A stretch of 64,000 bases of DNA, taken from NCBI GenBank assembly GCA_009777935.1, contig WRKU01000002.1, positions 11,205 through 75,204 of the forward strand, given 5' to 3'. Shown here piece by piece: positions 1,850-51,123 of this stretch. The DNA comes from Coriobacteriia bacterium (GTDB lineage Bacteria > Actinomycetota > Coriobacteriia > WRKU01). Positions within the stretch are counted from its first letter, which is position 1; the number at the start of each line of letters is the position of its first letter. Below the pieces are notes generated by a model that had not been told where the DNA came from, did no database searches, and saw nothing but the letters and a program-made list of their open reading frames with translations. The translations under genes were made by a program, and so were the position numbers.

Positions 1850-2643
1850 TTGAAAATCGTCCCTTGATATCGGTTATTACGGTGTGCAAGAATGCCGAAC
1901 GTACCATCGAAAGAGCATTTTATTCACTACAACGGCAAACCGATGACGGAACCGATAGTGGTCTACTGTTTGCAGACTTTGAGCATATAATTGTTGATGG
2001 GGCCTCTACCGATAGCACGAAGAGACTTATTGAACAATATAGCGAAACAGCCCAGTTTCCCGTCACCATAATCTCCGAACCCGATCAGGGGATTTACGAT
2101 GCGATGAACAAGGGATTAGCGTGTGCAAAAGGGCTGTATACCGTATTTTTGAATGCTGATGATGTCTTTACCCAAAATGCATTCGTAACGGTGGCTGATT
2201 ATGCAAAAGAATTGCCCGATTGCATCGGCGGAGACTGCGATATCGTGGACAGGAACGGCAATGCATATCTGAGAAAGTGTTTGCCGTCCATGATATCCGA
2301 GCGATATCCGCAGATCATGCCTGCCCAACACCAAGCATGGTATGTGAAGACTGATACCTTACAGATGGCGGGAGGATTTGACCAGACGTTCCCTATTGCG
2401 GCAGACTATGAATTAGCTCTGCGATTAATTGAGGATAAGGTCTCTTGGATGTTTGTGCCCCATACTGTCGCACGGTTTTATCTGGGAGGCGTAAGTTTTC
2501 AGCTTGCGCGTACGGCATGGGATTGTTTTCGGGTTCGCCGAGCGCGCAGATGGCCAATCGTTTTTGCTTCACGTCTGCTAATTTGTAACATAGTGGCATC
2601 GTATGTCAGTCGTGTGTGCGGCTATTTTGGATGGGCTCGATGA
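1837..2643 (+). CDS. Glycosyltransferase family 2
   Basis: N-terminal 'ISVITVCKNAERTIERAF...VDGASTDSTKRL...DQGIYDAMNKG' GT2 (GT-A) signature. Overlaps the flippase stop. Confidence 0.8.
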   Translation: MAQVVENRPLISVITVCKNAERTIERAFYSLQRQTDDGTDSGLLFADFEHIIVDGASTDSTKRLIEQYSETAQFPVTIISEPDQGIYDAMNKGLACAKGLYTVFLNADDVFTQNAFVTVADYAKELPDCIGGDCDIVDRNGNAYLRKCLPSMISERYPQIMPAQHQAWYVKTDTLQMAGGFDQTFPIAADYELALRLIEDKVSWMFVPHTVARFYLGGVSFQLARTAWDCFRVRRARRWPIVFASRLLICNIVASYVSRVCGYFGWAR

Positions 2644-3746
2644 CGGTCCGTGTCACATATGACTATCAGGCGTTTTCGATGCAGAAGGTTGGCGGCATCT
2701 CGCGCTATGTTGCTGAAGTTACGCATGCGCTTAAGGGGCGTTCGGGTATCGAACCTGGAGTTCCGGTTCGGTACGCCGACAATCGATATCTCGTTGAAGT
2801 CTTAAATATCCGACCGCACACCTTGTTTCATCGATATCGCGGTCGCGGATGTCGTTACGTTATGTCCTTTGGCGATTATTTCAATAAAAAGTTGGCCCTA
2901 CGTGCGCTCGAAACGATTAGCGAACCAGTGTACCATCCCACCTATTACGACCCTTACTTGTTGCCACATCTCAATCAGACACCTTTTGTTATTACAGTGC
3001 ATGATATGATTCATGAGCTTTTCCCAGATGAAGTAGCAGATCCGTGGGTTGCTCTTCATAAGGCGGTTATGATTGAACAAGCAGACCACATAATCGCGGT
3101 GAGCGAATCAACCAAGCGCGATCTCCTACAGTTTTATCCTGAGTCTGCAGGGAAGGTGACCGTCATACATCATGGAGCGAGCTTTATGCGTCGCGAGAAC
3201 AATATCGAGCCTCTTGTATCAGGGCCATATTTACTGTTTGTGGGGAGTAGAGGAGCATACAAAAACTTCAAGATGACCGTTGAAGCATATGTGCAACTAG
3301 GGGGTGAGCACCCGGATCTTTCGCTGGTATGCGCCGGTGGGGGGATATTCACCCAAGACGAACAGTATATGCTTGATGCGCGAGGCATCAGCAGTCGTGT
3401 TTATCAAATCTCTGCGACCGATACGCAGCTCGAAAGTCTTTATGCTCATGCGGCAGCATTCGTTTTTCCTTCTCACTATGAAGGTTTTGGCCTGCCCATA
3501 CTCGAAGCTATGGCGTGTGGCGCTCCCTGTGCATTGAGCAACACGAGTTCACTGCCGGAAGTCGGCGGTGATGCAGCATGTTACTTTGATCCCTGTGACG
3601 CGGATGCGCAGGCGAGAATACTTGCAGATATTTTGAGTGATAATACGCTCGCATCTGATATGCGCCATGCAGGATTTAAGCGGGCAGCAAGTTTTACCTG
3701 GGAAAAGTCAGCACGTCAGCACGAAGAGGTGTACCTCGCATTATGA
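2640..3746 (+). CDS. Glycosyltransferase family 4 (GT1 superfamily, GT-B fold)
   Basis: C-terminal 'EGFGLPILEAMACGAPCALSNTSSLPEVGGDAACYFDP' motif typical of GT4. ATGA start/stop overlap with the upstream gene at 2640. Confidence 0.8.
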   Translation: MTVRVTYDYQAFSMQKVGGISRYVAEVTHALKGRSGIEPGVPVRYADNRYLVEVLNIRPHTLFHRYRGRGCRYVMSFGDYFNKKLALRALETISEPVYHPTYYDPYLLPHLNQTPFVITVHDMIHELFPDEVADPWVALHKAVMIEQADHIIAVSESTKRDLLQFYPESAGKVTVIHHGASFMRRENNIEPLVSGPYLLFVGSRGAYKNFKMTVEAYVQLGGEHPDLSLVCAGGGIFTQDEQYMLDARGISSRVYQISATDTQLESLYAHAAAFVFPSHYEGFGLPILEAMACGAPCALSNTSSLPEVGGDAACYFDPCDADAQARILADILSDNTLASDMRHAGFKRAASFTWEKSARQHEEVYLAL

Positions 3747-4576
3747 GAGAGCGACTCCCACAACAACCGACACTATTTTTGGTAACAGCATGTCTGAACG
3801 CAGAGGCAACTATTAGTGATACGTTTGCCGTTCTCGAAGAACAGGCTGTCGAATGGGCGCACTATTTTGTGATAGACGGTGCTTCGACTGACGGAACCGT
3901 TGAGCTGGCACATCGGTTTGCTGAGGAACAAGGCGGTCGCGTCACCGTTATCTCCGAACCCGATACCGGCATCTATAGCGCCATGAACAAAGGTGTACGA
4001 CTGGCGTTAAGGCGAGCGGCTGATGACGACCTGATAGCGATTATCAACGCTGACGACTACTACGTATCGGGTGCGTTGCACACGGTGCGCGCGGCTGCAG
4101 CGCGTCATCCTGAGGTTGACATATTCTATGGCGACTGCGAACTGCTCGATGAGTGTGGAGTTTCTCGGAGACAGCGGCGCACATCAGAGCCACGCTTACC
4201 CGTGACCCCGACGTGCTTCACGATGCCTCTCGAGCATCCCACCATGTTCATGCGTGCACATGTGTATAACACGTTCGGTCTTTACGACGAATCGTATCGC
4301 ATAGCGGCAGACTACGAGTTTGTATTGCGCCTTATCGTTGCGCAGACATCGACACTTTACCTCGCCGAGCCGATAACGTATTTTCGTGAAGGTGGCATCT
4401 CGACGACGAAGATTAACGAGAGCCTCAGGGAGGCCATACGTGCCCGGATTGCGCATGGTGCGAATCCGGTGTATGAGTGGGCACGGTATGCAAAACAAAA
4501 ATTTAACGAGCAACTGTTTGCTGTTTTACGCGTCGTTCCGGGCGTGGAATGTATCTACACTGAACGATACAGGTAA
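3743..4576 (+). CDS. Glycosyltransferase family 2
   Basis: 'LFLVTACLNAEATISDTF...IDGASTDGTVELAHRF...DTGIYSAMNKG' GT2 signature. ATGA overlap with the upstream gene. Confidence 0.8.
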   Translation: MRERLPQQPTLFLVTACLNAEATISDTFAVLEEQAVEWAHYFVIDGASTDGTVELAHRFAEEQGGRVTVISEPDTGIYSAMNKGVRLALRRAADDDLIAIINADDYYVSGALHTVRAAAARHPEVDIFYGDCELLDECGVSRRQRRTSEPRLPVTPTCFTMPLEHPTMFMRAHVYNTFGLYDESYRIAADYEFVLRLIVAQTSTLYLAEPITYFREGGISTTKINESLREAIRARIAHGANPVYEWARYAKQKFNEQLFAVLRVVPGVECIYTERYR

Positions 4577-4660: not shown

Positions 4661-5536
4661 ATGACGAAAAAACTCGTCACACGAGTCGCTATGCTTGTCG
4701 GCGCAGGTATTATGGCGTTCGGGCTGGCAGGGATTGCCGTTGCCACGACGCCAGCTGAACTCTCCGAGATGCAGTACGTCGTTGCTGAGAACACGGAAGT
4801 AGGAACCAGTCTCATGACTGTGTATGGCTTTCTGCCAGACGATACCTCACTTCCGGCAACTGCACATTTCTACGCACCTTCTGACTTCTTGCTTGTCAAT
4901 GTTTTTGGGTTAACGCTTGAGGAAGATTCACGGGAAGTTGTGGTGTCGCATACGGCGACCGAGGAGGACAACGGCTTCACGCGCTATGACGTTGTTTTTA
5001 CTGAGAGCACCATGTTTATAGCGAGTTTTGTGCTTGACGCAAAGATATATGACACGACAGTGATGGGCGGTCCAAGTGCTGCTCCCATCGCTGAACTTGA
5101 GGTCCTTCCTCCAAATGACCTTGAGCTTCTTACGATTGGGTTTGTCGCTCCTGAGGGCTATGCAGGCGTGGGTCAAGGGGTGACTCAGCTGGGAACCGAT
5201 TATGATGGCAACGAAATCTACGGAATTGATTACACCAATGTTCCGGGTGATGAGGTCATTGTGGCGGTCGTCGCCTTTGGTCAACAGTTCGAACAAGTGG
5301 AGTTTAATGCAGAGAACGTAGCGTTGGCGACAGTGTGGTACGAAGAGCCGTTCACGTGGATTATGGGCGCGCTCATATTTGCTGCGGCAGGTCTTGCCGT
5401 TGTCCTCTACCTGATACTTACCTGCAAAGGCCCGTTTGCCTCACGTAGTGACGTAGGAACCCACGATGTGCAAGATTCCGATACACCAGCTAACACCGAC
5501 ACAACAACTTCCGATGAAGAAGCTTCAGCGCGTTAA
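4661..5536 (+). CDS. Uncharacterised surface protein, paralog A (N-terminal signal peptide, about 230-aa ectodomain, C-terminal TM anchor and acidic tail)
   Basis: Hydrophobic N-terminus, single C-terminal helix 'WIMGALIFAAAGLAVVLYLIL'. Shares a 'L.IGF.APEG..G.G' block with the proteins at 13668 and 14541. Confidence 0.55.
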   Translation: MTKKLVTRVAMLVGAGIMAFGLAGIAVATTPAELSEMQYVVAENTEVGTSLMTVYGFLPDDTSLPATAHFYAPSDFLLVNVFGLTLEEDSREVVVSHTATEEDNGFTRYDVVFTESTMFIASFVLDAKIYDTTVMGGPSAAPIAELEVLPPNDLELLTIGFVAPEGYAGVGQGVTQLGTDYDGNEIYGIDYTNVPGDEVIVAVVAFGQQFEQVEFNAENVALATVWYEEPFTWIMGALIFAAAGLAVVLYLILTCKGPFASRSDVGTHDVQDSDTPANTDTTTSDEEASAR

Positions 5537-5582
5537 GGATAGTATTCGACGTCGGTTAGCTGAGGATGACGCTCGGCCCCCG

Positions 5583-6527
5583 ATGACCACAGAGGACGCT
5601 AAGCGCCTTACTAAACGCTTGGCACCGTGGGTATTTCTGGCGGTGGTATTTCTGCTCTTGCTGCCCGGCGCCGTTGCGACGGTCTGGGTTCCCGCGTGTA
5701 GCTCGTGCCATGTTACCGTTGCTGAAGCAACGGCCGAGAGAGCACACGTCGATATGGCCTGCACCGACTGTCATAATACCGGAGGACGTCTCGCATACCG
5801 ACAAATCGTTATGTATAGCATGGTAACAAGGCTTGCCAATCCTTCAAATCTCGGTGCGGCAAACGTGTCTGATGAAACATGTCTCACCTGTCATGAAACG
5901 GACGTCACGCGCGGCACTACGCTGTCAAATGGCATCAATATCAGACATTCGGCATGCGCAGCAACCCTCGCATGCACAGTATGCCACTCGACGGCCGGTC
6001 ACTCGACGCCCGGCCTCCAGTATCAATACTCGATGGATCAGTGTCTCTGGTGTCATACCGACCAAATGGTCGATGCCGCCAACGAGGAAAGCTGCTACCT
6101 CTGTCATGATGGACGGTATCGATCGGTCATACCGAATAACACCTCGGCTTTTCGTATCACCCATAATGAGAACTGGCTTCGAACACACGGGCTTGGCGAT
6201 ATGAACTCTTGCCGGAGTTGCCACACAACGGAAACCTTCTGTGGCAGATGCCACGGACCACTAGTACCCCATCCTCCGACCATCCTTATGCGACATTCAG
6301 AGCCGGCGCGTGATCCGAACAATAAGTGCGACAGTTGCCATCCACAGTCGTTCTGTGACGATTGTCATGGCATGGAAATACCACATCCTGAGCGGTTCCT
6401 CCAAGAACACGCTGCCATCACCAACGAGCTTGGCGAGGACGCCTGTTATGGCTGTCATCTCACGAGCGATTGTCTGCGGTGCCATATGGCGCACATTCAT
6501 CCGGGTTGGGGGGTGTTCACGCGCTGA
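5583..6527 (+). CDS. Membrane-anchored multiheme cytochrome c with 12 CXXCH motifs (NapC/NirT-like N-terminal anchor)
   Basis: CSSCH, CTDCH, CLTCH, CTVCH, CLWCH, CYLCH, CRSCH, CGRCH, CDSCH, CDDCH, CYGCH and CLRCH were counted directly. N-terminal helix 'WVFLAVVFLLLLPGAV'. The start is uncertain: the ORF opens at 5466, with alternative ATGs at 5514 and 5583. 5583 is chosen because it lies just after the upstream stop at 5536. Confidence 0.75.
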   Translation: MTTEDAKRLTKRLAPWVFLAVVFLLLLPGAVATVWVPACSSCHVTVAEATAERAHVDMACTDCHNTGGRLAYRQIVMYSMVTRLANPSNLGAANVSDETCLTCHETDVTRGTTLSNGINIRHSACAATLACTVCHSTAGHSTPGLQYQYSMDQCLWCHTDQMVDAANEESCYLCHDGRYRSVIPNNTSAFRITHNENWLRTHGLGDMNSCRSCHTTETFCGRCHGPLVPHPPTILMRHSEPARDPNNKCDSCHPQSFCDDCHGMEIPHPERFLQEHAAITNELGEDACYGCHLTSDCLRCHMAHIHPGWGVFTR

Positions 6528-7735
6528 TGCAAGACTTTATCGATACCCTTTGGCAGATTGTCAACGTTCCCGTGCACGAAGACTCCTTTGCACAGCGGCT
6601 TGACTATCTGGCCGGTGTCATACGAAATCCGCAATCCGATGTTCCAGTTGCCATTCTGCTTTTTGCGATAGCATCACTTATTATTCTGGTAATCTTTTCT
6701 ATTGTTTTGTTAATAGTCTTAAGACTTGCGCACTCAGAGCCGACGTACGCGCTCGTTGACGCCGAGGGTAATCCTATTCGCGAGATATCGGCCGAAGAAG
6801 CTGAGAAGCGTCTCAAAGGGTCACCACTTGAAAAGGTGCAACGAACAACACGTGAGATACTCGATAAGACGGCGGCAAAGATTGCTATCAACATTATCAT
6901 ATGGGTTGGTATCGCACTCATTGTGGCGGCAATTACGGGGACGGCGACACGCTCGAATACGTTTTGTAACTCGTGCCATGAGGAAAACAATCATTCGCAA
7001 ATGCTTGCAGGCACTGCTCATGCAAATGTACTCTGCGTCGACTGCCACGAGACTGGAGGGATGGTGCAGTCTTTCACGGTGAACGTGCCAGGACGACTCG
7101 TTCATACTGCAGCGGGCTTTTTCTGGCAGTCGGGTGTGAACTACGCGTTCTTCCCGCGCGAATCGTGCTTCCGGTGTCATCCGCGTGAGAGTCTTGCTGA
7201 GACGATAATAGTCGACAACATTGCGATGCAACATGAGCCGCCCCTAGAGGCAGGGCTTACCTGTATTCAGTGCCACACTTTTAGTCCCTCACAGGAGTTT
7301 TCGTTTTCAACGCGAGGCATGCAAACGTGCTTGCGCTGTCATGATGGCGAGAACGTTAATCTGGACTGTGAAATATGTCACCGTCCTTCGTTAAGCGTTG
7401 TGCCGCGTACCGAACTCGATCCGGATACAACGGCTCAGGCACTACTCCAAGGTGTCGACTTCCAGCAAGGTTGTTATCGCTGTCACGACCCACGCCCGTG
7501 CGACGCATGCCATGGCTATCGTATACCACACGCCGAGGGCTACACGTTTCAGCCGCATGTCGATGATGCGCGGCGATATGGGTATCGAACGTGCTTAATA
7601 TGCCATTGGAAGGGGTCACCGACGGGTATTCCCACCTGCGATGATCCGGGATGTCATGGCAATATTTGGCAACTGATGGAGGTTCCCAACCCTTCCGGAC
7701 AAGTGCCCAGCCCCTCTTGGCGACGGCTCAGATAG
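6527..7735 (+). CDS. Membrane-bound multiheme cytochrome c with 9 CXXCH motifs plus one CX4CH, and two TM helices
   Basis: CNSCH, CVDCH, CFRCH, CIQCH, CLRCH, CEICH, CYRCH, CDACH, CLICH and CDDPGCH. TGATG overlap with the upstream cytochrome. Helices 'VAILLFAIASLIILVIFSIVLLIVL' and 'INIIIWVGIALIVAAITG'. Confidence 0.8.
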   Translation: MQDFIDTLWQIVNVPVHEDSFAQRLDYLAGVIRNPQSDVPVAILLFAIASLIILVIFSIVLLIVLRLAHSEPTYALVDAEGNPIREISAEEAEKRLKGSPLEKVQRTTREILDKTAAKIAINIIIWVGIALIVAAITGTATRSNTFCNSCHEENNHSQMLAGTAHANVLCVDCHETGGMVQSFTVNVPGRLVHTAAGFFWQSGVNYAFFPRESCFRCHPRESLAETIIVDNIAMQHEPPLEAGLTCIQCHTFSPSQEFSFSTRGMQTCLRCHDGENVNLDCEICHRPSLSVVPRTELDPDTTAQALLQGVDFQQGCYRCHDPRPCDACHGYRIPHAEGYTFQPHVDDARRYGYRTCLICHWKGSPTGIPTCDDPGCHGNIWQLMEVPNPSGQVPSPSWRRLR

Positions 7736-7736
7736 C

Positions 7737-9482
7737 GTGCTCGATTCTATGCGTAAATACGCTCTGGCGCTCTTCATGCTCGCGTGTTTTCTCGCGCCGG
7801 GCGCATTCCTCATCTTCACTGTTCCTCAACTTTACTACGCACAGATATGGTTCGTAATAACACCGCTTATCGGTTATGCGATATTCGCCGTATGTGCGCG
7901 TGGAGATACGGTCTTTTCAGAACGAGCACTTTTTATTACAACACTCATCGTTGGCGCAGCGCTCGTGCCGCTACTTGTGAACCCGCATATCTGGCAACAA
8001 ATTACGTTTGACATCTATGGCGAGATGCCGCTTATTTTGTGGCTGATGTATCCGCTTGTCTTTTTTATGGCATCGACGGTAAAGTTTGATTCGTCGGTTC
8101 GTCCGGGAATCTATGCGCTTGCGTACGTCGGCTTCTTGTTGATTGTGGTGGCCGGTGTTCAGCGTCTCATGATGGGCGATTGGTCGACGGTCTTTGGAAG
8201 TCGTGCATATTCGACGGTGGCGTTTGCCCCCATTCCCCTTTTGCTTCTTTACACGGCGAACCTCGACAAAGAGCACAAACCGGTGCATCTTGCGGCCGCT
8301 ATACTGGCTGTCGTCGGTGTTGCTTACTCTGGCGGCGCACTGGGTCTGTACACCGTCGCAGCTCTGCTGCTTCTTGCCGTGAGTTTTGCACCCGAGCTAC
8401 TGCAGATGCCGACGAAAGCTACCACATGGGCAAAACGAGGTGGGCGAGTCTTGCTGACGCTGTTTGTTACTGCTTCAGCCGTGGTTACCTTTGCGCCTGA
8501 CCTCGCACATACGATGCCCGATATTGCCGTGTTTTCCTCGAATGCGGTGGCGACGCGCATTCATCTCTGGGAGGCAGCGCAGAGGATGTTTCTCGCCGAA
8601 CCGTTATTCGGTTTTGGACCGGCTGGCTATCGATTCTCAGCGATACAGTTTTACGACCCTCAAATCTTTGAGTACACCATGACACTTGGCACCGACCCTA
8701 TTGCCTATAGCTCGCCGTCGCCGCACTCGCTTGCGTGGGAGGTGCTCACGAGGCTTGGCCTGTGGGGTGCTGTGCTTTTGACGGCTGCAGCGGTCGTGTG
8801 GGCTATTGATTTACGTGAAGCAATCCAAGAGAAAACGCGTAATAACCCGCGCATGTTGTTCGCTCTGTGTACGCTGGCCGCGCTTATGGCGCTCTTTGCG
8901 ACACCGTTTCATTTTGCGAGCGGCCTGCTCGTCGCGCTCTGTGCGGGATTGGCGATTGCGCCAACGGCGAGGGTGACAAAAGCGCGGGCTCCCCATTCTG
9001 CGCCGCAATCGTTGCGCTTCACGAATTTCTTGCCTGTCGCGCTTCTTGCGACAAACCTTATTCTGGTGCTTATCGGGGGATATGCGCTTTACGCACACAT
9101 CAATCTCCACACTCCTGACCCAACACCACAACACTATTTGGTACGGCTTGAGAATCTTCGTGCACGGGTGCCGGGCTATCCGTTTGCCGAGCGCGATTAT
9201 TATGAGATGCTCATCGTGACCGCTGGCGCACCACAGCAACAAGATGCTATCGCCGAAGAGATACTTACGCAAGCACCTTCGTATGTTTCGGGTTTTGGGC
9301 CAAATCTTGCATGGTATGCAGGGCTTATGCTCGATAACCTTGAGCGATGGGAAACAGACTCCGTGCGCTCTACGGATTCCGTCGTTATGGTACGCGCACT
9401 TCTCGATTGTGCAGCCGAAATAATGCCGTCGACCCCGGCGTATCTTGAGGCGCGCGAACGTTTGGCGGTTATGGTAGACTAA
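7737..9482 (+). CDS. O-antigen ligase / Wzy_C-domain membrane protein (candidate O-oligosaccharyltransferase or polymerase-ligase) with a C-terminal soluble extension
   Basis: At least 10 TM helices. 'HLWEAAQRMFLAEPLFGFGPAGY' resembles the conserved periplasmic loop of WaaL, PglL and Wzy_C proteins. Possible GTG start at 7737 or ATG at 7749. Confidence 0.55.
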   Translation: MLDSMRKYALALFMLACFLAPGAFLIFTVPQLYYAQIWFVITPLIGYAIFAVCARGDTVFSERALFITTLIVGAALVPLLVNPHIWQQITFDIYGEMPLILWLMYPLVFFMASTVKFDSSVRPGIYALAYVGFLLIVVAGVQRLMMGDWSTVFGSRAYSTVAFAPIPLLLLYTANLDKEHKPVHLAAAILAVVGVAYSGGALGLYTVAALLLLAVSFAPELLQMPTKATTWAKRGGRVLLTLFVTASAVVTFAPDLAHTMPDIAVFSSNAVATRIHLWEAAQRMFLAEPLFGFGPAGYRFSAIQFYDPQIFEYTMTLGTDPIAYSSPSPHSLAWEVLTRLGLWGAVLLTAAAVVWAIDLREAIQEKTRNNPRMLFALCTLAALMALFATPFHFASGLLVALCAGLAIAPTARVTKARAPHSAPQSLRFTNFLPVALLATNLILVLIGGYALYAHINLHTPDPTPQHYLVRLENLRARVPGYPFAERDYYEMLIVTAGAPQQQDAIAEEILTQAPSYVSGFGPNLAWYAGLMLDNLERWETDSVRSTDSVVMVRALLDCAAEIMPSTPAYLEARERLAVMVD

Positions 9483-9521
9483 GGGGTGTTTAGGACAGGT
9501 CTGAAGGTGAAAGGCGGCGCA

Positions 9522-10298
9522 ATGAGTGACGCAGATAAGCCGGTAGAAAAAGAAGTTGTAGTCGTGCGCAAGAAGCAGAAGATGTTTGATGATCCGGTGA
9601 ACCGGGTGCTTGGCGTTATTATCGCAGCACTTATCATCTGGTCGTTGGGGACGATATTAATGCTCATCTTGACCGGTGTCATTAACCTTTCCGGCGCACC
9701 ACAGAACGCCGATGATGCCGCCGTTCTCAAGTATGGGAGCGCACTCGATGCCGAAGCTGATTCGTGGCAGTGGCAGTTCTATGTGGTGACGCTTATTGAA
9801 TCGGGCAGATTGGCCGAGGCCGAAGCAGTCATCAATAGCGAAGACTTTCAGAATATCGATGTCTATCAGCATCAAGAGATTCTCTACTGTACGGCACTGC
9901 TCGAGTTCCGCCGAGGCAACTACGAAGAGGCCATCGCTCTTTATCGGCAGGTTATCGAGAAGACAAGAGAGTCGTACGAGCACATGCTCGAGACCGGTGG
10001 CGAGCACATGAACTGGGCTCTTGCTGAAGGCATATCTCCGAACTACTCCTTTGCGCTTCGCGATTTGACCGGTGCCTATATGGCGCTAGAAGAGTGGGAG
10101 TCTGCCTTGGAGACAGTGAGCCATTATCTTGAGATAAATCCTCAAGAGGCCGGTATGCTCATTGACCGCGCTCATATCAAGGAGCAACTAGGCGACTACG
10201 CCGGCGCTATAGCCGATCTTGAAATGGCGCAGGTATTCTTGCCAGAGGATGAAGAGGTTATCGAAAGTATCCAGCGTGTTGAAGGGAAACTGCAATGA
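9522..10298 (+). CDS. Tetratricopeptide-repeat protein with N-terminal TM anchor
   Basis: Single helix 'VLGVIIAALIIWSLGTILMLIL', followed by helical repeats with TPR-like spacing (e.g. 'EAIALYRQVIEK', 'GAIADLEMAQVFLPEDEE'). A ribosome-binding site (GAAAGG) lies upstream of the ATG at 9522. Confidence 0.6.
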   Translation: MSDADKPVEKEVVVVRKKQKMFDDPVNRVLGVIIAALIIWSLGTILMLILTGVINLSGAPQNADDAAVLKYGSALDAEADSWQWQFYVVTLIESGRLAEAEAVINSEDFQNIDVYQHQEILYCTALLEFRRGNYEEAIALYRQVIEKTRESYEHMLETGGEHMNWALAEGISPNYSFALRDLTGAYMALEEWESALETVSHYLEINPQEAGMLIDRAHIKEQLGDYAGAIADLEMAQVFLPEDEEVIESIQRVEGKLQ

Positions 10299-11599
10299 GC
10301 GAGGAACTAAAAGAGACACAACCGCAGAGTGTACCCCCAGCGGATTCGGATGCACAGTCACGGGTTGTTGAGATAGACGAGGCGCATGGTTCGGGCAAAA
10401 ATTCGGGTCGGGTCGCCCTTATTGTTGCTTTGATAACCTTGCTGTTCCTCATGGCGCTAGCAGCAGCCCTCCTTTTTTTCCTGACCGGTGGTCTGGGGGG
10501 TGGTGGTAGAACGGTCGCCGGTGTCACGTGGATACGGTCTATCTATGGCACCGGCCCCGAGCAGCACCAGCAGCACTCTCCCGGCGACGCACATCCGGCC
10601 CCCAGTGGCTCGCGCATGTTTGTGACCGATCAGTTCGGTATGCGTATCATCGAGTACGATCACAACGGTATGTATCACGGGTCGTTCGGTGGTCCGGACA
10701 CACTGCCGTATCCTTCGAACCTTGCCATCGCTGCCGACGGAACTAAATATATTGCGATGCAGACCCACGACAGAATCGTCATCTACGATTCGAATAACAA
10801 TCAAATTGGCGCCATCGAACTTCCCGAGTCACCGTTCTCTGTTGCCGTTAATCAAGACATGTTGCTGGTAGGTATGCGCGGAGCCTTTGGTGCTTTTGAG
10901 CTGGACGGTACTGAGATTGGATACGTCGGATCGTTTGGTAACGGCGAGTTCCAGTTCGATAATATCAGCGGCGTGGCTCTTGATAACAATAACAACGCAT
11001 ACATTGTGGATACGTTCAATAACCGTATTAGCAAGTATGATCCAGCCGGTGAACGGATATGGATTCATCGCACAGGTGTTCCGCGCAACGCAGGAATGAA
11101 CATTGCGCTTGAGGAGGATCTGGAAGTATCGCGCGAACTTTTTCCCTCTAATATGCAAATGCCCATGGGCGCTACCATCGATGCAGCCAACCGCCTCGTC
11201 ATCGTCGATATGATGGACTTCTCCATTGCGGCCTTCGATATGGAAACCGGTGAGTTCATTGATAAGTGGGGTACGTTCGGCGAGGCCGATGGCGCTCTCC
11301 ATTATCCAAACCAGATTGAGTACCATCGTGGCGAGGATGTGTTCTACATCGTTGAAACAGCGTTGGGTCGTGTACAGATTGTTTCATTGCCGGGTTCTGG
11401 CGGTGGCCTACTTACACAGTTAAATCGCAACTTGGCCGGTCCACTGGGTGCCTGCCTGTTACCGGTTCTCCTGATTATCGTCATCGCCACTGCCTATTAT
11501 GTAGCGCGTAAGATAATGAGAAAACGTGCCGAAGAAGCCGAGATTAAAGCTCAAGAGGCTCCAGAAGATACTGAGATGGGAACCAAAACGGGGGAATAA
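10295..11599 (+). CDS. NHL-repeat (six-bladed beta-propeller) protein anchored by both N- and C-terminal TM helices
   Basis: Repeated 'Y..D..N.RI..YD' blades, e.g. 'AYIVDTFNNRISKYDPAG', 'RLVIVDMMDFSIAAFD', 'VFYIVETALGRVQIV'. TM helices near residues 40-65 and 385-410. ATGA overlap at the start. Confidence 0.65.
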   Translation: MSEELKETQPQSVPPADSDAQSRVVEIDEAHGSGKNSGRVALIVALITLLFLMALAAALLFFLTGGLGGGGRTVAGVTWIRSIYGTGPEQHQQHSPGDAHPAPSGSRMFVTDQFGMRIIEYDHNGMYHGSFGGPDTLPYPSNLAIAADGTKYIAMQTHDRIVIYDSNNNQIGAIELPESPFSVAVNQDMLLVGMRGAFGAFELDGTEIGYVGSFGNGEFQFDNISGVALDNNNNAYIVDTFNNRISKYDPAGERIWIHRTGVPRNAGMNIALEEDLEVSRELFPSNMQMPMGATIDAANRLVIVDMMDFSIAAFDMETGEFIDKWGTFGEADGALHYPNQIEYHRGEDVFYIVETALGRVQIVSLPGSGGGLLTQLNRNLAGPLGACLLPVLLIIVIATAYYVARKIMRKRAEEAEIKAQEAPEDTEMGTKTGE

Positions 11600-11632: not shown

Positions 11633-11663
11633 CCAATCCGCGGTCGATTTGGTCGCGGATTGG
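11633..11663. promoter_or_regulatory. Perfect 10-bp inverted repeat CCAATCCGCG-N11-CGCGGATTGG in the AT-rich leader upstream of the secreted cytochrome
   Basis: Seen directly. It lies 34 nt downstream of the stop of the upstream gene and about 170 nt upstream of the ATG at 11835. It could be a U-less terminator hairpin or a dimeric transcription-factor operator. Confidence 0.4.
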
Positions 11664-11834
11664 TGCGTCAAATATCACCTGAAATTACTTAAAAATCTTT
11701 CTGAAAAATATTTATTTTTTCCCGAAAATTTGATATACTATATATGGCTGACAAGTGTCAGATATTCTATGCTCGGATGGGGGGTGATAACAATGAAAGA
11801 GATGAAAAATGTTCCTTCTATTAAAGGAGATAGT

Positions 11835-13451
11835 ATGAAAAAAGTATTACTTACGCTTGCTTTGGCAGCAATGCTCGTCTTTGCATTTGCATCCGTTGCC
11901 GGAGCTAAGTATGCAGGTTATGCAATCGACGGTAACCGCGACCGCAACGAGATTAATTCCGAGACCGGAACCGTTAACTCACCACAGCCCGGCTTCCTCT
12001 CATGGGGCGGTGCTATCCGTATGCAGGATGCGAGTGGCTTTACCGCAGCTGCAACGGCACCCGGTGCACCCGGTGTTGGTAACGTGCACGGTGGCTATGC
12101 TATCGCGTCGTCTAAGTGTTTCGTCTGCCACTCTGCTCACCGCGCAGGTGTAGCAACGACACGTGCCTCACTGACCATGGGTGGCGCAGCGTGCGGTATC
12201 TGTCACACCGTATGGGGTGGCGGCGGTGCCAACAAGAAAGTTGAGTACAACCGTGACGAGATGCGTCCGCACTCGAGCGCAGACACGACCTGTCACCAGT
12301 GTCACGGTGGCGGTATCCACGGTGGTGGGGGATCTGAGTTCGCGGGTATGAACATGTTCCTCATTGGTGGCAGGGCTGACAGTCTCATCAGAGCAGAGAT
12401 TGGCGCGGACGCTGCCGATAACTCGAAGCCTAATCAGATTCCAAGTGGTCTGACAGCCGCTCGTACATGGTTTTTCGATAACGCTCCAGCATCGTCTGAT
12501 GCGTGGACCATTCCTACAGGTCTGAATCGTCAGACATGGAGTGTTGCAAAGGGTACCGTTACCGGTATGACCTGTAACCGGTCCGGATGTCACACCAACT
12601 CAGTCTTTGCTATCAATGAGTGGGGTGTTGGTGCGACGCGTAACGTTTCGAGCTCTAACCTTGGTGCAGCAATGGGCGGCACAGATACCAATACCGATCC
12701 GATTGCACACACCGGTCACATCAACCCTGGGCGCTATCGCAACACAGGTGGCGACGATTGTGCGCCGTGTCACGCCGGGAATGTATCCGCTGGCTTCCGT
12801 ATGCGCACGGTAGCGGGCTATGAAGATGCAGAACCTGTTGGTGTCGACGGTGACCGCTCGACTGCTTATGGCTGTGACCAGTGTCATGATATGGTCGGTG
12901 TTCAGACCGGTACGACCGCCTTCCCGCACGGTAACCGCGTAGCGGTATACGAGTGGGATGATAATGGTGCTGCAGTGACGACGACCTCGACGGCCGGTAA
13001 TCTCTGGATGTATGCAGGTAACATTGCTCAGATTTCTACCGTTAACTCGACCTGGTCCACCTGGCGTCAGGCCGACGGTATCACCGCACCAGCGGGCTCT
13101 CGAGTTCCCTCTCCGGTCGATCCTAGTTTCCGCGTCATTAACGGTGCGGTTGGTAGCAACAACGACGGTACTGCCAAGGACGGTGCGTGTCTGAAGTGCC
13201 ACATCACGACCGACGATGCGTCGTTCTACCATCTGGTGGGAAGCTATCCGGCAACGGTCGGTCCTGATGGATTCCGTCAGGCACTTACTCCGGCTGCTGT
13301 GGGTACCCGTCACCAGAATCGCGCTATCGGTACTTACTTTAACGCGACCACAACGACAGGCACCGCGTGGCAGAACAAGACCGTCTTTGACGGTACAAAC
13401 CTTGCCTCTGTCCGCGACAACGGTTCAGATGTTATCTGGATCTTCCGCTAG
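11835..13451 (+). CDS. Secreted Gly/Thr-rich multiheme cytochrome c with 6 CXXCH motifs plus one CX4CH
   Basis: Signal peptide 'MKKVLLTLALAAMLVFAFASVAGA'. A ribosome-binding site (AAAGGAGA) lies 7 nt upstream. Motifs: CFVCH, CGICH, CHQCH, CAPCH, CDQCH, CLKCH, CNRSGCH. No TM helix after the signal peptide. Thr-rich segments such as 'TTTSTAGN' and 'TTTTGTAW'. Confidence 0.8.
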   Translation: MKKVLLTLALAAMLVFAFASVAGAKYAGYAIDGNRDRNEINSETGTVNSPQPGFLSWGGAIRMQDASGFTAAATAPGAPGVGNVHGGYAIASSKCFVCHSAHRAGVATTRASLTMGGAACGICHTVWGGGGANKKVEYNRDEMRPHSSADTTCHQCHGGGIHGGGGSEFAGMNMFLIGGRADSLIRAEIGADAADNSKPNQIPSGLTAARTWFFDNAPASSDAWTIPTGLNRQTWSVAKGTVTGMTCNRSGCHTNSVFAINEWGVGATRNVSSSNLGAAMGGTDTNTDPIAHTGHINPGRYRNTGGDDCAPCHAGNVSAGFRMRTVAGYEDAEPVGVDGDRSTAYGCDQCHDMVGVQTGTTAFPHGNRVAVYEWDDNGAAVTTTSTAGNLWMYAGNIAQISTVNSTWSTWRQADGITAPAGSRVPSPVDPSFRVINGAVGSNNDGTAKDGACLKCHITTDDASFYHLVGSYPATVGPDGFRQALTPAAVGTRHQNRAIGTYFNATTTTGTAWQNKTVFDGTNLASVRDNGSDVIWIFR

Positions 13452-13667: not shown

Positions 13668-14480
13668 ATGATGAGACGACGTGGCATTCTTTCCGCATTC
13701 TTAGGCACAATCGTGCTTTTGGGTGTGTTAGGTATTGGCATCTCTGTGGCTGGTGCCGCGGTCTTTAATCGAATAAGCGTAATCGCTCGTCCCTACGATG
13801 CTTTTACGACCGAATACACGGTAATTGCGAGGCCGTCTGTGCACGACGCTCCGGTTGGCACCGCACAGCTTGTCTTGCCGCGCGACATCACGGTGGTTTC
13901 TGCACGCCATATCGCGGATGCCAGTAGCGTGGATGATGAGGGCGAAGCAGAATACACCGTCGAGCCACATTCGAATGGTATTGATGACGTCTACACCTTT
14001 GTTTTGGCCGATGAAGAAGGCACAAGCGGGCTTTTCGATTGGCAAGGAGTTCAGATAGTGCTCCACGCCGATGAACCGCTGTATTCTGAGACCGATGACG
14101 GTCAAATTGTGTCTTCGTTTCGATTCGTTGCACCAAACCCTCTATCAGGTCTCGAAATTGGCTTCGAGGCTCCAGCGAGGATGACAGGCAGCGGTGCTGG
14201 TGTCGTTTTGCTTGAGGAGGACGCATACGATAGGGCAGTATATGGTATTACTCGCGCAGAGAACGTGCGTGCGGATGAAGAGATTGTTGCACAGGTCGTC
14301 TTCAATCTTATTGAAGATCCTGGTCCGGCCGAAGCCGTGGCGCTTAGTGTCACTGAGTCAGTCGAAGAACATAACCGGGGCCTCATCATAGGTGCGCTCA
14401 TTGGTGCAATCATCCTTGTCGTCGTAGTCGTCGTGCTCGTTGCACGCAAGGTCAGTAAGGATAGGAAGCAGGCACAGTAG
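13668..14480 (+). CDS. Uncharacterised surface protein, paralog B (signal peptide and C-terminal TM anchor)
   Basis: Signal peptide ending 'VAGAAVF'. C-terminal helix 'LIIGALIGAIILVVVVVVLVA' followed by 'RKVSKDRKQAQ'. 'ADEPLYSETDDGQIVSSFRFV' and 'LEIGFEAPARMTGSG' align with the paralog at 14541. Confidence 0.6.
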   Translation: MMRRRGILSAFLGTIVLLGVLGIGISVAGAAVFNRISVIARPYDAFTTEYTVIARPSVHDAPVGTAQLVLPRDITVVSARHIADASSVDDEGEAEYTVEPHSNGIDDVYTFVLADEEGTSGLFDWQGVQIVLHADEPLYSETDDGQIVSSFRFVAPNPLSGLEIGFEAPARMTGSGAGVVLLEEDAYDRAVYGITRAENVRADEEIVAQVVFNLIEDPGPAEAVALSVTESVEEHNRGLIIGALIGAIILVVVVVVLVARKVSKDRKQAQ

Positions 14481-14540
14481 GCTGCAAACTAAGCCGCAGG
14501 CAGGCTGTTTGTAAAACCTGAACAGGAAGGTAGAGGCACG

Positions 14541-15311
14541 ATGAAGCGACTTGCCATCTTTATGACACTCGTAGGGGCTGTTCTACTCTTTGGCATGACG
14601 GGTTTGGGCGCAACCGAGGCTGGTGCTGCCTTCCAGCGCGTGGTCATCACCGGTTCCCCTCATGGCGATACAGCGGCCGAATACGAGGTTATTGCCCGAG
14701 TCTCGGCCCATCATCTTCCGAAGGATGCACCGAGACTTATACTTCCCGTTGATTTTGACGTAGTCGAGGTGGAGTATCTCTGGAGTGCTATGAGCCAGGG
14801 TGTGGAGCCTGAAAAGTATGCTGTTGGGCCTCATCCCGATGGGTGGGGTAACGTCTATTCGTTTAGCGTGACAGACTGGACAGGAATCCGGCTTGTGTTC
14901 CGTGTCGACGAACCACTGTATCGAGAAAACGACGACGGTGACCTTGTCTCGAGCTATTCTTTTAAAGTTGATTACGCTTTGTCCGAGCTCGTCATTGGCT
15001 TCGAGGCACCTGAGGGCATGGTTGGCACGGGCAAAGACGTTATCTTTTTGGGAGAAAGCGCGGATGATGTGCCTCTTTACGGCATCAACGTTGCGCCGGC
15101 GCGCGCAGGACAGGAAATCGTCGCCGAAGTTACCTTCACTGAACCTGAACCCGAAGTCGAACCGGGGTTCTTTGCGACTCTTAGTGCCAAGATAACCGAT
15201 CTTGCGCGCGAACATACGGTTGGATTAATCGTCGCCGTGTTGGTGGGCGGGATAGTACTTGTCGCTGCGGTTGCACTGTTCGTTGTCTGGCGAAGCCATC
15301 ACGAGAGGTGA
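14541..15311 (+). CDS. Uncharacterised surface protein, paralog C (signal peptide and C-terminal TM anchor)
   Basis: 'VDEPLYRENDDGDLVSSYSFKV' and 'LVIGFEAPEGMVGTGKDV' blocks. C-terminal helix 'LIVAVLVGGIVLVAAVALFVV' followed by 'WRSHHER'. Confidence 0.6.
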   Translation: MKRLAIFMTLVGAVLLFGMTGLGATEAGAAFQRVVITGSPHGDTAAEYEVIARVSAHHLPKDAPRLILPVDFDVVEVEYLWSAMSQGVEPEKYAVGPHPDGWGNVYSFSVTDWTGIRLVFRVDEPLYRENDDGDLVSSYSFKVDYALSELVIGFEAPEGMVGTGKDVIFLGESADDVPLYGINVAPARAGQEIVAEVTFTEPEPEVEPGFFATLSAKITDLAREHTVGLIVAVLVGGIVLVAAVALFVVWRSHHER

Positions 15312-15521: not shown

Positions 15522-16172
15522 GTGGAATTCATGTTACTAATATTTTCGAGCATCATCGCAATTGGGACACTGGCTGTGCTTATTTGGCAAGTTTCATTGC
15601 TTACCCGTCAAGTGGTTTTGGCGAGGAAGAGCATGGAAAATCAGTACGAACAAACAAGGCGCGTGCAGACAGTAGCGGTAAGTGCTAACTGGACCTCGGC
15701 CATGAGCCCTGCGTTGTATTTTGCGTTTCGGATAGTTTCACAACTTGATGACAAGCAGTGTGACAACTTGTATCGGCTTGTTAGTTTTGATGTGCAAAAT
15801 CTTGATCCGGGTCTCAAACCTTATTTATGTGAGTTATGTATGGCAGAAAAACATCAGAACGAATGCTCAGAAGAGTGTTCGGCTAGTGAAACGTATGCTC
15901 ACATATCAGGGAAAGCGCTTTCCGAACTTAGGACAGTTGCAATACGATTCCTAAATGAAGCCGAGACGGTTATGACTGCACGCGCGCTGGGCATAGTTGA
16001 TAAAGACACTATTGATCGTCAATTTATGTTCTTAGTCGATCCACGCAAGGGACAGCCGGCATTAGAGAAATTTAGAAAAGTTTCAGGTGGCTATCCTAAT
16101 TTAGATGCATTTATCGAAGAGCTTAAAGAGGCAAATAATGCTTCTTATAAGTCTCCTTTAACAGTCGAGTAA
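15522..16172 (+). CDS. Hypothetical protein with N-terminal TM helix, in a low-GC islet
   Basis: 216-aa ORF with an N-terminal helix 'MLLIFSSIIAIGTLAVLIW'. The surrounding roughly 0.9 kb (15.4-16.3 kb) is visibly AT-richer than the flanks. No family recognised. Confidence 0.4.
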   Translation: MEFMLLIFSSIIAIGTLAVLIWQVSLLTRQVVLARKSMENQYEQTRRVQTVAVSANWTSAMSPALYFAFRIVSQLDDKQCDNLYRLVSFDVQNLDPGLKPYLCELCMAEKHQNECSEECSASETYAHISGKALSELRTVAIRFLNEAETVMTARALGIVDKDTIDRQFMFLVDPRKGQPALEKFRKVSGGYPNLDAFIEELKEANNASYKSPLTVE

Positions 16173-16284: not shown

Positions 16285-16319
16285 GAGCCCCTTTCTTTCG
16301 AGAAGGGGCTCCTTCTTTT
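16285..16319. terminator. Bidirectional Rho-independent terminator between convergent genes
   Basis: GAGCCCCTT...AAGGGGCTC hairpin followed by CTTCTTTTG. It lies between the + gene ending at 16172 and the - gene ending at 16329. Confidence 0.6.
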
Positions 16320-26818: not shown

Positions 26819-27997
26819 GTGGCGAAACCAAAACCTCAAACCTATATGCGCATAGTAAGGTGGTTTCTCATCGTCGTGGCGATACTTTTGCTTGTCTATG
26901 GCACTATCTTCGGTATGCTCTTGTTGCTTGGTTACCAGCCCGATACTTTCGAGCGGTTTGCGCAAATCTTTGCATCTCAGCCTGAAGAAGAAGGTCCACC
27001 TCCACGCGACCTTTCCGAATGGACAGACGAAGAACTTGCTGCTCAGATGCTGATTGTGATGAGTCCGTCATACGATCCGGTTGGCCTCTATATGCTGGCG
27101 CGTATAGGGGTGGGAGGTATCCTGCTTTCAAGCGATGAGCCTTACGACAACATTGCGGCGGTTATCAAAGAGGTGCAGGGGCAAACACCACGTAATATTC
27201 GGATGTTCATCGCAAGTGACGAAGAGGGTGGCGAGCTCGAGCGTATGCAGCGCAAGATTGGCGAGCTCCCCAGTGCAAAAACGATGGGCACCTGGAAGCC
27301 TGAGCGCATTCGCGACGCGACGTTCGAGTACGGACGAGAGCTACACGACCTTGGCATAAACCTTGTGGCTGCGCCCGTTGCTGATCTTGCCGTGCCCGGA
27401 ACCTACATGACTGAACATGGGCGCACGTTTAGCGATGATCCGCAGACGGTCGCCGACTGTGTTGTTGCATGGAGCGACGGCATGCGCGCGGCTGGCATTG
27501 CCGTTATGCCCAAGCACTGGCCGGGAATCGGTAGCGCACGTGACACACATCTCGTCGTCACGACGGTGCCCTCACGCGAGGCGCTTGAAAAGGCGGAGAT
27601 GGTTCCGTTTATTGCCGCGCTGGAGAGTGGTGCTGAGATGATTATGGTCGGTCATGTGGTGGCCTCCGACCTGACTGAGCCCAATACACCGGCAAGTATC
27701 TCGCCGAGTGCGATGGCATACCTGCGCGAAAAGGCTGGAGAAGACGTAATTATCGTCGTTGATGAGGTTGGTATGGAGGGCGCAAACACGACAGGAATGC
27801 CGCGGCCGATCGATGAAGCAGTCATTCAGTCTGCGATAGCCGGTGCCGATCTCGTCATGATTGGCGCGCTTGTTACCGAAGACTCTATTGCCTCGCTTAC
27901 CAAGGCGATTGCTGACGGACGCTTTGACCGTATGCAGGCCGAAGACTCGGTACGTCGTATTCTGCGTCTTAAAGAGCAGATGGGACTGATGCGGTAG
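26819..27997 (+). CDS. Glycoside hydrolase family 3, paralog, N-terminal TM anchor
   Basis: 'VMPKHWPGIGSARDTHLVV'. TM helix 'WFLIVVAILLLVYGTIFGMLLLL'. Tandem to the preceding GH3. Confidence 0.7.
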   Translation: MAKPKPQTYMRIVRWFLIVVAILLLVYGTIFGMLLLLGYQPDTFERFAQIFASQPEEEGPPPRDLSEWTDEELAAQMLIVMSPSYDPVGLYMLARIGVGGILLSSDEPYDNIAAVIKEVQGQTPRNIRMFIASDEEGGELERMQRKIGELPSAKTMGTWKPERIRDATFEYGRELHDLGINLVAAPVADLAVPGTYMTEHGRTFSDDPQTVADCVVAWSDGMRAAGIAVMPKHWPGIGSARDTHLVVTTVPSREALEKAEMVPFIAALESGAEMIMVGHVVASDLTEPNTPASISPSAMAYLREKAGEDVIIVVDEVGMEGANTTGMPRPIDEAVIQSAIAGADLVMIGALVTEDSIASLTKAIADGRFDRMQAEDSVRRILRLKEQMGLMR

Positions 27998-51111: not shown

Positions 51112-51123
51112 CAGGTATTCATT

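Follow-up and report, generated by a model that had tools for sequence, protein, structure and literature searches.

Electron conduits built from multiheme cytochromes have been described in Gram-positive bacteria, namely the OcwA pathway of Thermincola and Smh/OmhA of Carboxydothermus (PMC6703420, PMC7829351). In cytochrome clusters for extracellular electron transfer, from Gram-positive and other bacteria (examples are Dethiobacter alkaliphilus, 'Ca. Tenderia', and Desulfovibrio ferrophilus), the cytochromes are accompanied by NHL and TPR proteins. These proteins are non-redox and extracytoplasmic, and they are proposed, not shown, to organize or stabilize the complexes (PMC10376724; bioRxiv 10.1101/2022.05.06.490989). 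Cultured Coriobacteriia of the OPB41/Anaerosomatales lineage, one of which respires Fe(III), are rich in multiheme cytochromes (PMC9686372). How multiheme cytochromes are positioned in or across the thick wall of a monoderm is poorly understood: this has been studied only in a few thermophilic Firmicutes, and the NHL and TPR helpers are uncharacterized. Here, we analyze a stretch of 64,000 nucleotides from a Coriobacteriia bacterium (contig WRKU01000002.1; hereafter "the window"), in which a cluster of multiheme cytochrome genes is bracketed by genes for three paralogous membrane proteins, A, B, and C.

Like the conduits of Thermincola and Carboxydothermus, the window belongs to a monoderm and encodes membrane-bound and secreted multiheme cytochromes together. 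Unlike those conduits, its cytochromes come with a dedicated Wzy_C-type (O-antigen-ligase-like) protein and are encoded inside a glycan island. A, B, and C resemble the NHL and TPR accessory proteins in being non-redox, in being encoded in the same array, and in belonging to a family that is co-located with multiheme cytochromes (within 10 kb in 6 of 11 loci, and at 8.5 kb in another, L018). They differ from NHL and TPR proteins in lacking repeats, in their fold, and in having a C-terminal transmembrane (TM) anchor. Also, NHL and TPR proteins are widespread, but the family occurs in a single lineage, and it is found away from cytochromes too. We found no paper on a comparable cysteine-free, C-terminally anchored partner family for Gram-positive cytochrome conduits. 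The family is a new, lineage-restricted addition to the accessory proteins of envelope cytochrome clusters, with a known fold. As for its role, our leading but tentative reading is that it is a non-redox membrane tether or docking subunit of the cytochrome module, and that an anchorless 7-heme cytochrome is the likeliest client of B and C.

Three paralogs of an undescribed family

The genes for A (4661..5536), B (13668..14480), and C (14541..15311, beginning 61 bp 3' of B) are all on the + strand and encode proteins of 291, 270, and 256 amino acids. A preliminary description, made from the sequence alone, had proposed these as three paralogs; the open reading frames (ORFs) are present, and they are homologous well beyond what chance could produce. 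Full-length identity between B and C is 39% (E = 3e-57). A is 26% identical to B. BLAST relates A to B with E = 1e-9 and to C with E = 3e-8, with only the C-terminal half covered, and a hidden Markov model (HMM) of the family matches all three proteins across the whole ectodomain (E = 4e-60 to 1e-50; 3.9e-60 for A). This HMM finds no fourth copy in the 64-kb window. B is identical to the hypothetical protein FWG78_00805 of a Coriobacteriia metagenome-assembled genome (MAG) at NCBI, and C is identical to P0003 of a representative protein library. The ectodomain of A is 61% identical to that of P0004, which likewise precedes a 12-heme cytochrome, in locus L002.

In a hydropathy scan, each of the three proteins has an N-terminal hydrophobic signal with an AxA-type site, an ectodomain of about 190 amino acids, and a single C-terminal TM helix. 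B has its signal peptide at about residues 1-30, its ectodomain at residues 31-236, and its TM helix at about residues 238-260, followed by a short basic tail; C has the same build, with a short basic tail as well. A has a signal peptide, a beta ectodomain, a TM helix at about residues 230-260, and then a cytoplasmic tail of about 31 residues that is acidic and rich in serine and threonine. The initial picture of a signal peptide, an ectodomain, and a single TM helix holds for all three, but the short charged tail that went with it holds for B and C and not for A. Similarly, of the two sequence blocks that the paralogs were said to share, L.IGF.AP.G..G.G is in A, B, and C; DEPLY.E.DDG..VSS is in B, C, and their close relative P0002, but in A it is vestigial (D...Y...G). 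The label "surface protein" also needs adjusting. The anchoring in the membrane stands, but a small domain at the outer face of a monoderm's cytoplasmic membrane is not demonstrably exposed at the cell surface. A, B, and C are better described as type I membrane proteins.

Heme motifs had been reported as lacking, and CxxCH is indeed absent from A, B, C, and all of the other family members that we retrieved. We rejected c-type cytochrome identity on these grounds. Cysteines, which were thought to be missing altogether, are absent from B and C, but A has one, near the cytoplasmic end of its TM helix. Because these cysteine-poor proteins have no heme motif and, that of A excepted, no cysteine, we conclude that they are not redox carriers.

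We searched a profile of the ectodomain against 1.84 billion cluster representatives (E <= 1e-3) and found only 41 clusters. It took this exhaustive search of representatives to reveal the family. A word-indexed search of 5.8 billion proteins returned only 2, later 5, proteins; scans of a genome collection returned no relatives with a first pattern and two MAG contigs with a second; and a metagenome scan returned two loci with the family. Wherever the source of a member is named, it is a MAG of Coriobacteriia or of an "Actinomycetes bacterium." The two contigs from the genome collection are from the MAGs Md513_bin57 and Emb289P1bin20 and can be traced to termite-gut MAG sets. (In the MAG study, PMC7024585, "Emb289" denotes Embiratermes neotenicus, a termite that feeds on humus.) The family is restricted to termite-gut Coriobacteriia.

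Neither A, B, and C nor any of the 41 members matches Pfam or NCBIfam (Pfam E <= 0.1); there is only sub-threshold noise from TM segments (RIFIN, TMEM154, Syndecan, and the like). The family profile has no meaningful match among the sequences in PDB. In the literature, we found no description of this family or of cytochrome clusters from termite-gut Coriobacteriia. The suspicion that A, B, and C belong to an unrecognized family is supported by all three results. The family is undescribed, evolves quickly, and is multi-copy. Its best conserved stretch is L.IGF.AP.G..G.G, with a glycine/proline core motif that is kept in all members. In many of P0004-P0042, there is a tryptophan-aromatic motif just before the C-terminal TM helix, often followed by proline (W-[FY]-x-x-P-like). 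Several members have low-complexity linkers of Ala, Ser, Thr, Pro, and Gly ahead of the TM helix.

All full-length members have a signal peptide, an ectodomain, a C-terminal TM helix, a cluster of lysines and arginines, and a tail. The tails range from a few basic residues to about 97 strongly acidic residues (up to 43 Asp or Glu in 97 residues in the most acidic ones), and the acidic cytoplasmic tails suggest contacts in the cytoplasm as well. The tails also bear on whether the C-terminus could be a cleaved sorting signal. If it were, then a sortase or an exosortase- or archaeosortase-like enzyme would transfer the ectodomain to the wall or to a lipid. B and C do end in a TM helix with a short basic tail, and the neighboring TPR and NHL proteins match NCBIfam models that are associated with exosortase systems, although far below the cut-offs. 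But many members have 20-97 mostly acidic residues after the TM helix, which is incompatible with a terminal signal. Furthermore, there is no LPXTG, PEP, or PGF motif before the TM helix in the member sequences; the sorting-domain models of NCBIfam match 0 of 41 members; and there is no sortase or exosortase among the window's ORFs that we scanned against Pfam and NCBIfam. This explanation is largely refuted, and we consider it very improbable. (Many ectodomains contain LPxT in their N-terminal part. We dismissed this as a sortase motif: it is far from the C-terminus, has no following glycine, and is absent from B and C.)

An AlphaFold2 model of the ectodomain of B, from an alignment of 43 sequences, is all-beta with a helical stalk (pLDDT, the predicted local distance difference test, 89.3; predicted template modeling score, pTM, 0.83). 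This model replaced an earlier one from 4 sequences (pLDDT 73.5). In a Foldseek search of PDB, the best matches are to the N-terminal beta domain ("beta-saddle") of M1 aminopeptidases. The top match is ERAP1 (chain 3mdj_B; E = 1.2e-5; query-normalized TM-score, or template modeling score, 0.56), followed by ERAP2, IRAP, and LTA4H. Across the M1 matches, the query-normalized TM-score is 0.50-0.56, with about 205-215 aligned columns and 9-14% sequence identity. Ribophorin I of the human oligosaccharyltransferase is a weaker match (8b6l_O and 6s7o_E; E ~1e-4; root-mean-square deviation, or rmsd, 9.6-9.8 Å).

In M1 aminopeptidases, the N-terminal beta domain is followed by a thermolysin-like catalytic domain (HEXXH-(18)-E, GXMEN). 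The N-terminal domain of these zinc enzymes (ERAP1/2, IRAP, LTA4H, PepN) is the family's best structural match, but A, B, and C, at 256-291 amino acids, consist of the beta domain with its own signal peptide and TM helix, and have no catalytic or other peptidase domain. The family has no Pfam match to Peptidase_M1 and no profile-level sequence match to M1 enzymes. Judging from the model, the likeness to M1 enzymes and to ribophorin I is at the level of the fold, not of the family. In the solved structures that it matches, the beta-saddle is a non-catalytic part of a larger enzyme or complex. The predicted fold argues against an adhesin domain of the generic Ig type, and it would fit a protein-binding module. 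It had been noted that A, B, and C might turn out to be homologous to a well-characterized, unrelated family; we found this fold-level likeness only, and no adhesin domain. As for repeats, the ectodomain does not match any NHL or TPR family. In the model, helical repeats of the TPR kind are absent, and its structural matches were not to propellers.

Genes around the family members

A precedes the window's cytochrome genes, and B and C come after the last of them; the preliminary description had put this as one copy that opens the cluster and two that close it. All of the genes in this array are on the + strand. Ahead of A are a glycan flippase and three glycosyltransferases (332-4576), including a family-2 glycosyltransferase (GT2; 3743..4576; Pfam PF00535) directly upstream of A. 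A is followed by a cytochrome c that is anchored in the membrane at its N-terminus and has 12 heme motifs (5466..6527, with an alternative start at 5514; Pfam cytochrome c7/c3/MtrC-like). Next is a membrane-bound cytochrome with 10 heme motifs (6470..7735). It has weak similarity to NapC/NirT/NrfH and orthologs in L002, L010, L011, and L012, and it is the probable quinol-side entry point. Then come a polytopic Wzy_C-type membrane protein of 581 amino acids (7737..9482; weak match to Pfam Wzy_C), a membrane-anchored TPR protein (9486..10298; Pfam TPR families), and an NHL-repeat beta-propeller with a TM helix at each end and a charged C-terminal tail (10295..11599; Pfam NHL/SGL and NCBIfam ScyF-like NHL). 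The NHL protein is conserved in six loci, and the TPR gene is kept with the NHL gene in 6 of 6 cytochrome-linked loci (by Pfam, and for five of them by BLAST grouping). The NHL protein ends in a TM helix with basic residues and then acidic ones after it, a build similar to the anchor of the paralog family.

The last cytochrome is a large secreted protein with 7 heme motifs (11649..13451, probably starting at ATG 11835). Its signal peptide is cleavable, and it lacks a membrane anchor. It is the only cytochrome in the window of which this is true, and it is the one that B and C come after. Its homologs adjoin family members, or lie close to them, in L002, L010, L011 (two), L012 (two), and L018. 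(The coordinates of large cytochromes are 11835-13451 in the window, 15294-17060 in L002, 6923-8917 and 11179-13119 in L011, and 1-1440 in L018.) These proteins all lack a membrane anchor. Among the ends that we read, the window and L018 copies share the mature N-terminus KYAGYA. A hydrophobic-basic C-terminus is found in the copies from the window (VIWIFR), L002 (VLWIVR), and L011 (RLFLYR in both), but not in L018. When we compared the 7-heme cytochrome to PDB with phmmer, the only match was CFA/I fimbrial subunit B, with no stretch that passed alone, which we took to be compositional noise.

We then examined 11 independent loci with usable flanks, including the window. (These loci share ancestry.) An operon encoding TPR, NHL, and multiheme proteins lies beside a family gene in 6 of the 11: the window, L002, L010, L011, L012, and L014. 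The expectation that the family would co-occur with cytochromes in other genomes was borne out by the latter five, in which the family gene is at the head of this operon or divergent from it. The members next to the operon in these five loci are very divergent, with only about 16-25% ectodomain identity to B. In L002, the order is as in the window: the family gene, 12-heme, 10-heme, TPR, NHL, and 7-heme. In L010, the family gene is divergent from TPR, NHL, two cytochromes, and Wzy_C, with a glycan operon on its other side. L011 has a divergent pair of family genes, each adjoining a 7-heme cytochrome of about 650 amino acids; TPR, NHL, 12-heme, and 10-heme genes follow. In L012, the family gene is divergent from a flippase, TPR, NHL, and four cytochromes, and a Wzy_C gene is just beyond, on the opposite strand. 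In L014, the family gene (P0031) overlaps the TPR gene, which is followed by NHL and a 7-heme cytochrome, and a second copy is 6 kb upstream.

Two other loci may share this context in part. In L018, a large-cytochrome homolog lies 8.5 kb away from the family gene, across a glycan cluster, and the contig ends just past the family gene. In L007, there is only 293 bp upstream of the B-like P0005, but the partial ORF there ends in ...FAVINLFK, which is like the hydrophobic-basic C-termini of the large cytochromes. This hints at the window's order of a large cytochrome and then a B-type gene.

Is this linkage to cytochromes expected by chance? In cultured relatives, the multiheme genes number about 17-18 and fall into a few clusters (PMC9686372). 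If we assume such numbers in a genome of a few Mb, then a random 20-kb window would rarely contain a multiheme gene, so linkage in 6-7 of 11 loci is far above chance. (This is a rough comparison because of the shared ancestry.) We also clustered all of the ORFs in these loci all-against-all, without bias towards any gene. The commonest companions are the NHL protein and the large cytochrome (6 loci each), followed, at 5 loci each, by the 12/10-heme cytochromes, TPR, GT2, sugar epimerases or dehydratases, and the flippase.

The linkage to cytochromes is conserved, but it is not exclusive. The preliminary interpretation, which included a putative role as cytochrome-associated scaffolds or receptors in the envelope, is therefore supported only in part. 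In 9 of the 11 loci (the window, L002, L009, L010, L012, L013, L016, L017, and L018), the family is in or beside glycan genes. L013 has two family copies with glycan genes only. One of these copies (P0006) lies 43 bp after a Wzy_C gene. A GT2 is directly downstream in this locus, and the 10 kb to each side contains no cytochrome, TPR, or NHL gene. In L016, the family gene is followed by an unknown gene, GDP-mannose dehydratase, two family-4 glycosyltransferases (GT4), a flippase, and Wzy_C. L017 has a GT2 directly before the family gene, L001 has a partial ORF related to the window's GT2 before the family gene (and the serA side of L017 and L001 is syntenic with L012), and L009 has glycan genes beside the family gene. 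In L001, L009, L016, and L017, one side of the family gene extends for only 0.5-3 kb before the contig ends.

These glycan genes point to the main rival of a cytochrome tether. The family could instead be a partner of the glycan machinery: an accessory or acceptor-presenting subunit of a Wzy_C-type ligase, polymerase, or O-oligosaccharyltransferase and of an envelope-glycan flippase. It would be loosely analogous to ribophorin I, with cytochromes as just one class of cargo or neighbor. Besides the 9 of 11 loci, and P0006 right after Wzy_C, this account draws on an ortholog of Wzy_C that is inside the cytochrome operon in the window and L010 and abuts it in L012, and on the GT2 immediately beside a family gene in the window, L013, L017, and probably L001. 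Also, ribophorin I chains are among the Foldseek matches, with the same type I topology. Like ribophorin I (OST1), the family has a beta-rich extracytoplasmic domain, one TM helix, and a cytoplasmic tail, and it is often near a Wzy_C-type gene. But the superposition is poor (rmsd >9 Å, E ~1e-4) and ranks below the M1-peptidase matches; ribophorin I is twice as long and has no sequence relationship to the family; none of the 41 members matches any Pfam model, including Ribophorin_I (PF04597), at E <= 0.1; and Wzy_C is unrelated to STT3. We treat the ribophorin I analogy as a lead rather than a result. In L011 and L014, TPR, NHL, and cytochrome genes accompany the family, yet no glycan or Wzy_C gene lies within 10 kb, and no acceptor-like segment rich in serine and threonine is conserved across the family. 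On balance, we think that a role as a glycan partner is unlikely, but it deserves to be taken seriously.

In the window, the Wzy_C-type protein within the cytochrome operon matches Pfam Wzy_C with 24.3 bits, which is below the cut-off. It is a full-length ortholog of the Wzy_C that ends the cytochrome operon of L010 (31% identity, E = 1e-59), and it is more distantly related to the Wzy_C that precedes P0006 in the glycan locus L013 (E = 8e-11). (The Wzy_C genes at the cytochrome operons of L010 and L012 are at 1005-2909 and 1-793.) Because orthologs are in the operons of both the window and L010, an O-antigen-ligase-like protein is a recurrent member of the cytochrome operon, which ties together the cytochrome and glycan contexts. 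Going by sequence, this suggests that the cytochromes or their partners may be glycosylated or ligated to a wall polymer.

A third explanation is that the family is a variable envelope or coat protein. This would be a fast-evolving, multi-copy, membrane-anchored protein or glycoprotein (a coat, an adhesin, or a determinant of interactions with phage or host) with no direct role in electron transfer or glycan assembly. The family's build (signal peptide, ectodomain, and C-terminal TM helix) is one that membrane-anchored surface glycoproteins have. The copies, two or three per locus, are divergent, and the window's paralogs differ strongly (26% identity between A and B). The family is often at a junction or border of a variable island, next to serA in L001, L002, L012, and L017, and the low-complexity linkers before the TM helix in several members would suit a coat protein. 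However, a 190-residue domain on a short stalk is unlikely to span a Gram-positive wall, and the long acidic tails suggest intracellular contacts too. Also, the conserved glycine/proline core and the frame overlaps with cytochrome and TPR genes suggest a fixed partner and not free display. We view a variable coat as quite unlikely. (A RelB/ParE toxin-antitoxin pair is directly upstream of an A-type family gene, at 9205-9832 in L002 and 974-1601 in L004, between serA and the cytochrome module. This position fits a recombination-prone island border.)

A possible tether for cytochromes

We return to the reading that we tentatively favor, in which the family tethers or docks parts of the cytochrome module. 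Evidence for it includes the shared architecture of the paralogs, a confident fold model whose precedents are non-catalytic, the linkage to the TPR-NHL-multiheme operon, and the known presence of NHL and TPR proteins in the cytochrome clusters of Gram-positive bacteria. In this model, a Sec-type signal peptide would direct export, and the ectodomain would be an all-beta saddle of about 190 residues on a short helical stalk. The single C-terminal TM helix, with lysines and arginines as a stop-transfer signal, would keep the protein in the cytoplasmic membrane. There, on the membrane's outer face and under the wall, the ectodomain would hold its partner. The module that it serves would comprise the 10-heme quinol-side cytochrome, the anchored 12-heme cytochrome, the secreted 7-heme cytochrome, the TPR protein, the NHL propeller, and often a dedicated Wzy_C-type protein.

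Which partners would be held? Different paralogs would contact different partners, most plausibly the anchorless 7-heme cytochrome for B and C and the 12-heme cytochrome for A. The 7-heme cytochrome is suggested because both family copies in L011 adjoin one, because B and C follow the window's, and because the ORF upstream of the B-like gene in L007 has a similar end. Reading frames overlap in three cases. In the window, the 3' end of A runs into the ORF of the 12-heme cytochrome; in L002, the family gene overlaps its 12-heme neighbor in the same way; and in L014, P0031 overlaps the TPR gene. The overlaps fit co-translation.

Several observations weigh against a dedicated cytochrome tether. 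First, L013 has two copies in a pure glycan locus, with the nearest 10 kb free of cytochrome, TPR, and NHL genes. Second, the immediate neighbors are glycosyltransferase or sugar-nucleotide genes in L016, L017, L018, L009, and L001. Third, in a tree labeled by context, cytochrome-adjacent and glycan-adjacent members are interleaved in every subclade, so there is no subfamily that is dedicated to cytochromes. For example, A and P0004 are linked to cytochromes, yet their 45%-identical relative P0006 follows a Wzy_C gene. Fourth, the surrounding envelope glycan region is over 50 kb long, and adjacency could therefore mean a shared "envelope island" rather than a shared complex. Finally, the loci are not phylogenetically independent.

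A more ambitious version of the tether would make the family the membrane platform of an as yet undescribed Gram-positive system for cytochrome display. The ectodomain would capture the anchorless 7-heme cytochrome, possibly via its conserved hydrophobic-basic C-terminus; the Wzy_C-type enzyme of the operon would glycosylate the cytochrome or ligate it to a wall polymer; and the cytochrome would then span the wall. This is a long shot. If it were true, then the family would be a bacterial functional counterpart of an accessory subunit of oligosaccharyltransferase, dedicated to electron-transfer proteins.

The surrounding island and what the family means

After C, the last gene before a terminator-like hairpin encodes a 216-residue protein with one N-terminal TM helix and several cysteines (15522..16172, + strand). 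It has no match in Pfam or NCBIfam and no homolog in the other loci, and a search across the loci for a conserved gene directly downstream of family members found none. The hairpin (16285..16311, + strand) has a 10-bp stem and then a T-rich tail. Its stem is the longest listed on either strand between 4300 and 16400, but it is only suggestive: scans for promoters and terminators gave numbers of sites that are not above the expectation from shuffled sequences.

On to at least 53 kb, the window encodes the synthesis of GDP-mannose/fucose and dTDP-rhamnose, many glycosyltransferases, an ABC exporter, and a large wall amidase. The cytochrome module is embedded in this cell-envelope glycan region of over 50 kb and looks like an insertion there. 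Positions 1-53600 also hold a flippase, at least 10 glycosyltransferases, two GH3 genes, and DegT aminotransferases. A wall hydrolase of 1251 amino acids (37120-40875) combines Amidase_3, six GBS Bsp-like repeats, and a glucosaminidase. Four large ORFs of the glycan region (678, 383, 456, and 496 amino acids; 27997-30033, 44231-46736, and 51008-52498) have no Pfam match at E <= 1e-5. In the MAG Emb289P1bin20, an FKBP-type peptidyl-prolyl isomerase (L016, 1759-2373) is divergent from the family member, and the cytochrome cluster of 'Ca. Tenderia' also lists a peptidyl-prolyl isomerase (bioRxiv 10.1101/2022.05.06.490989).

What this locus defines is a compact module, recurrent among termite-gut Coriobacteriia, that joins a new family of type I membrane proteins to three types of cytochrome, a TPR and an NHL protein, and a dedicated Wzy_C-type protein. 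In the guts where these bacteria live, the reduction of humus and of iron are plausible electron sinks. The family is real, conserved, and undescribed, but it is narrowly distributed and its function is only proposed. If it is a glycan partner or a coat protein, then it would be an ordinary lineage-specific envelope protein, and the Wzy_C gene of the cytochrome operon would be the more interesting lead. This embedded gene is among the most promising threads, together with a link that may exist between the glycosylation of the envelope and the placement of cytochromes. If the family is a tether or assembly platform, then it would offer a handle on how cytochromes are placed in Gram-positive envelopes, and on a possible link between glycosylation and electron transfer.

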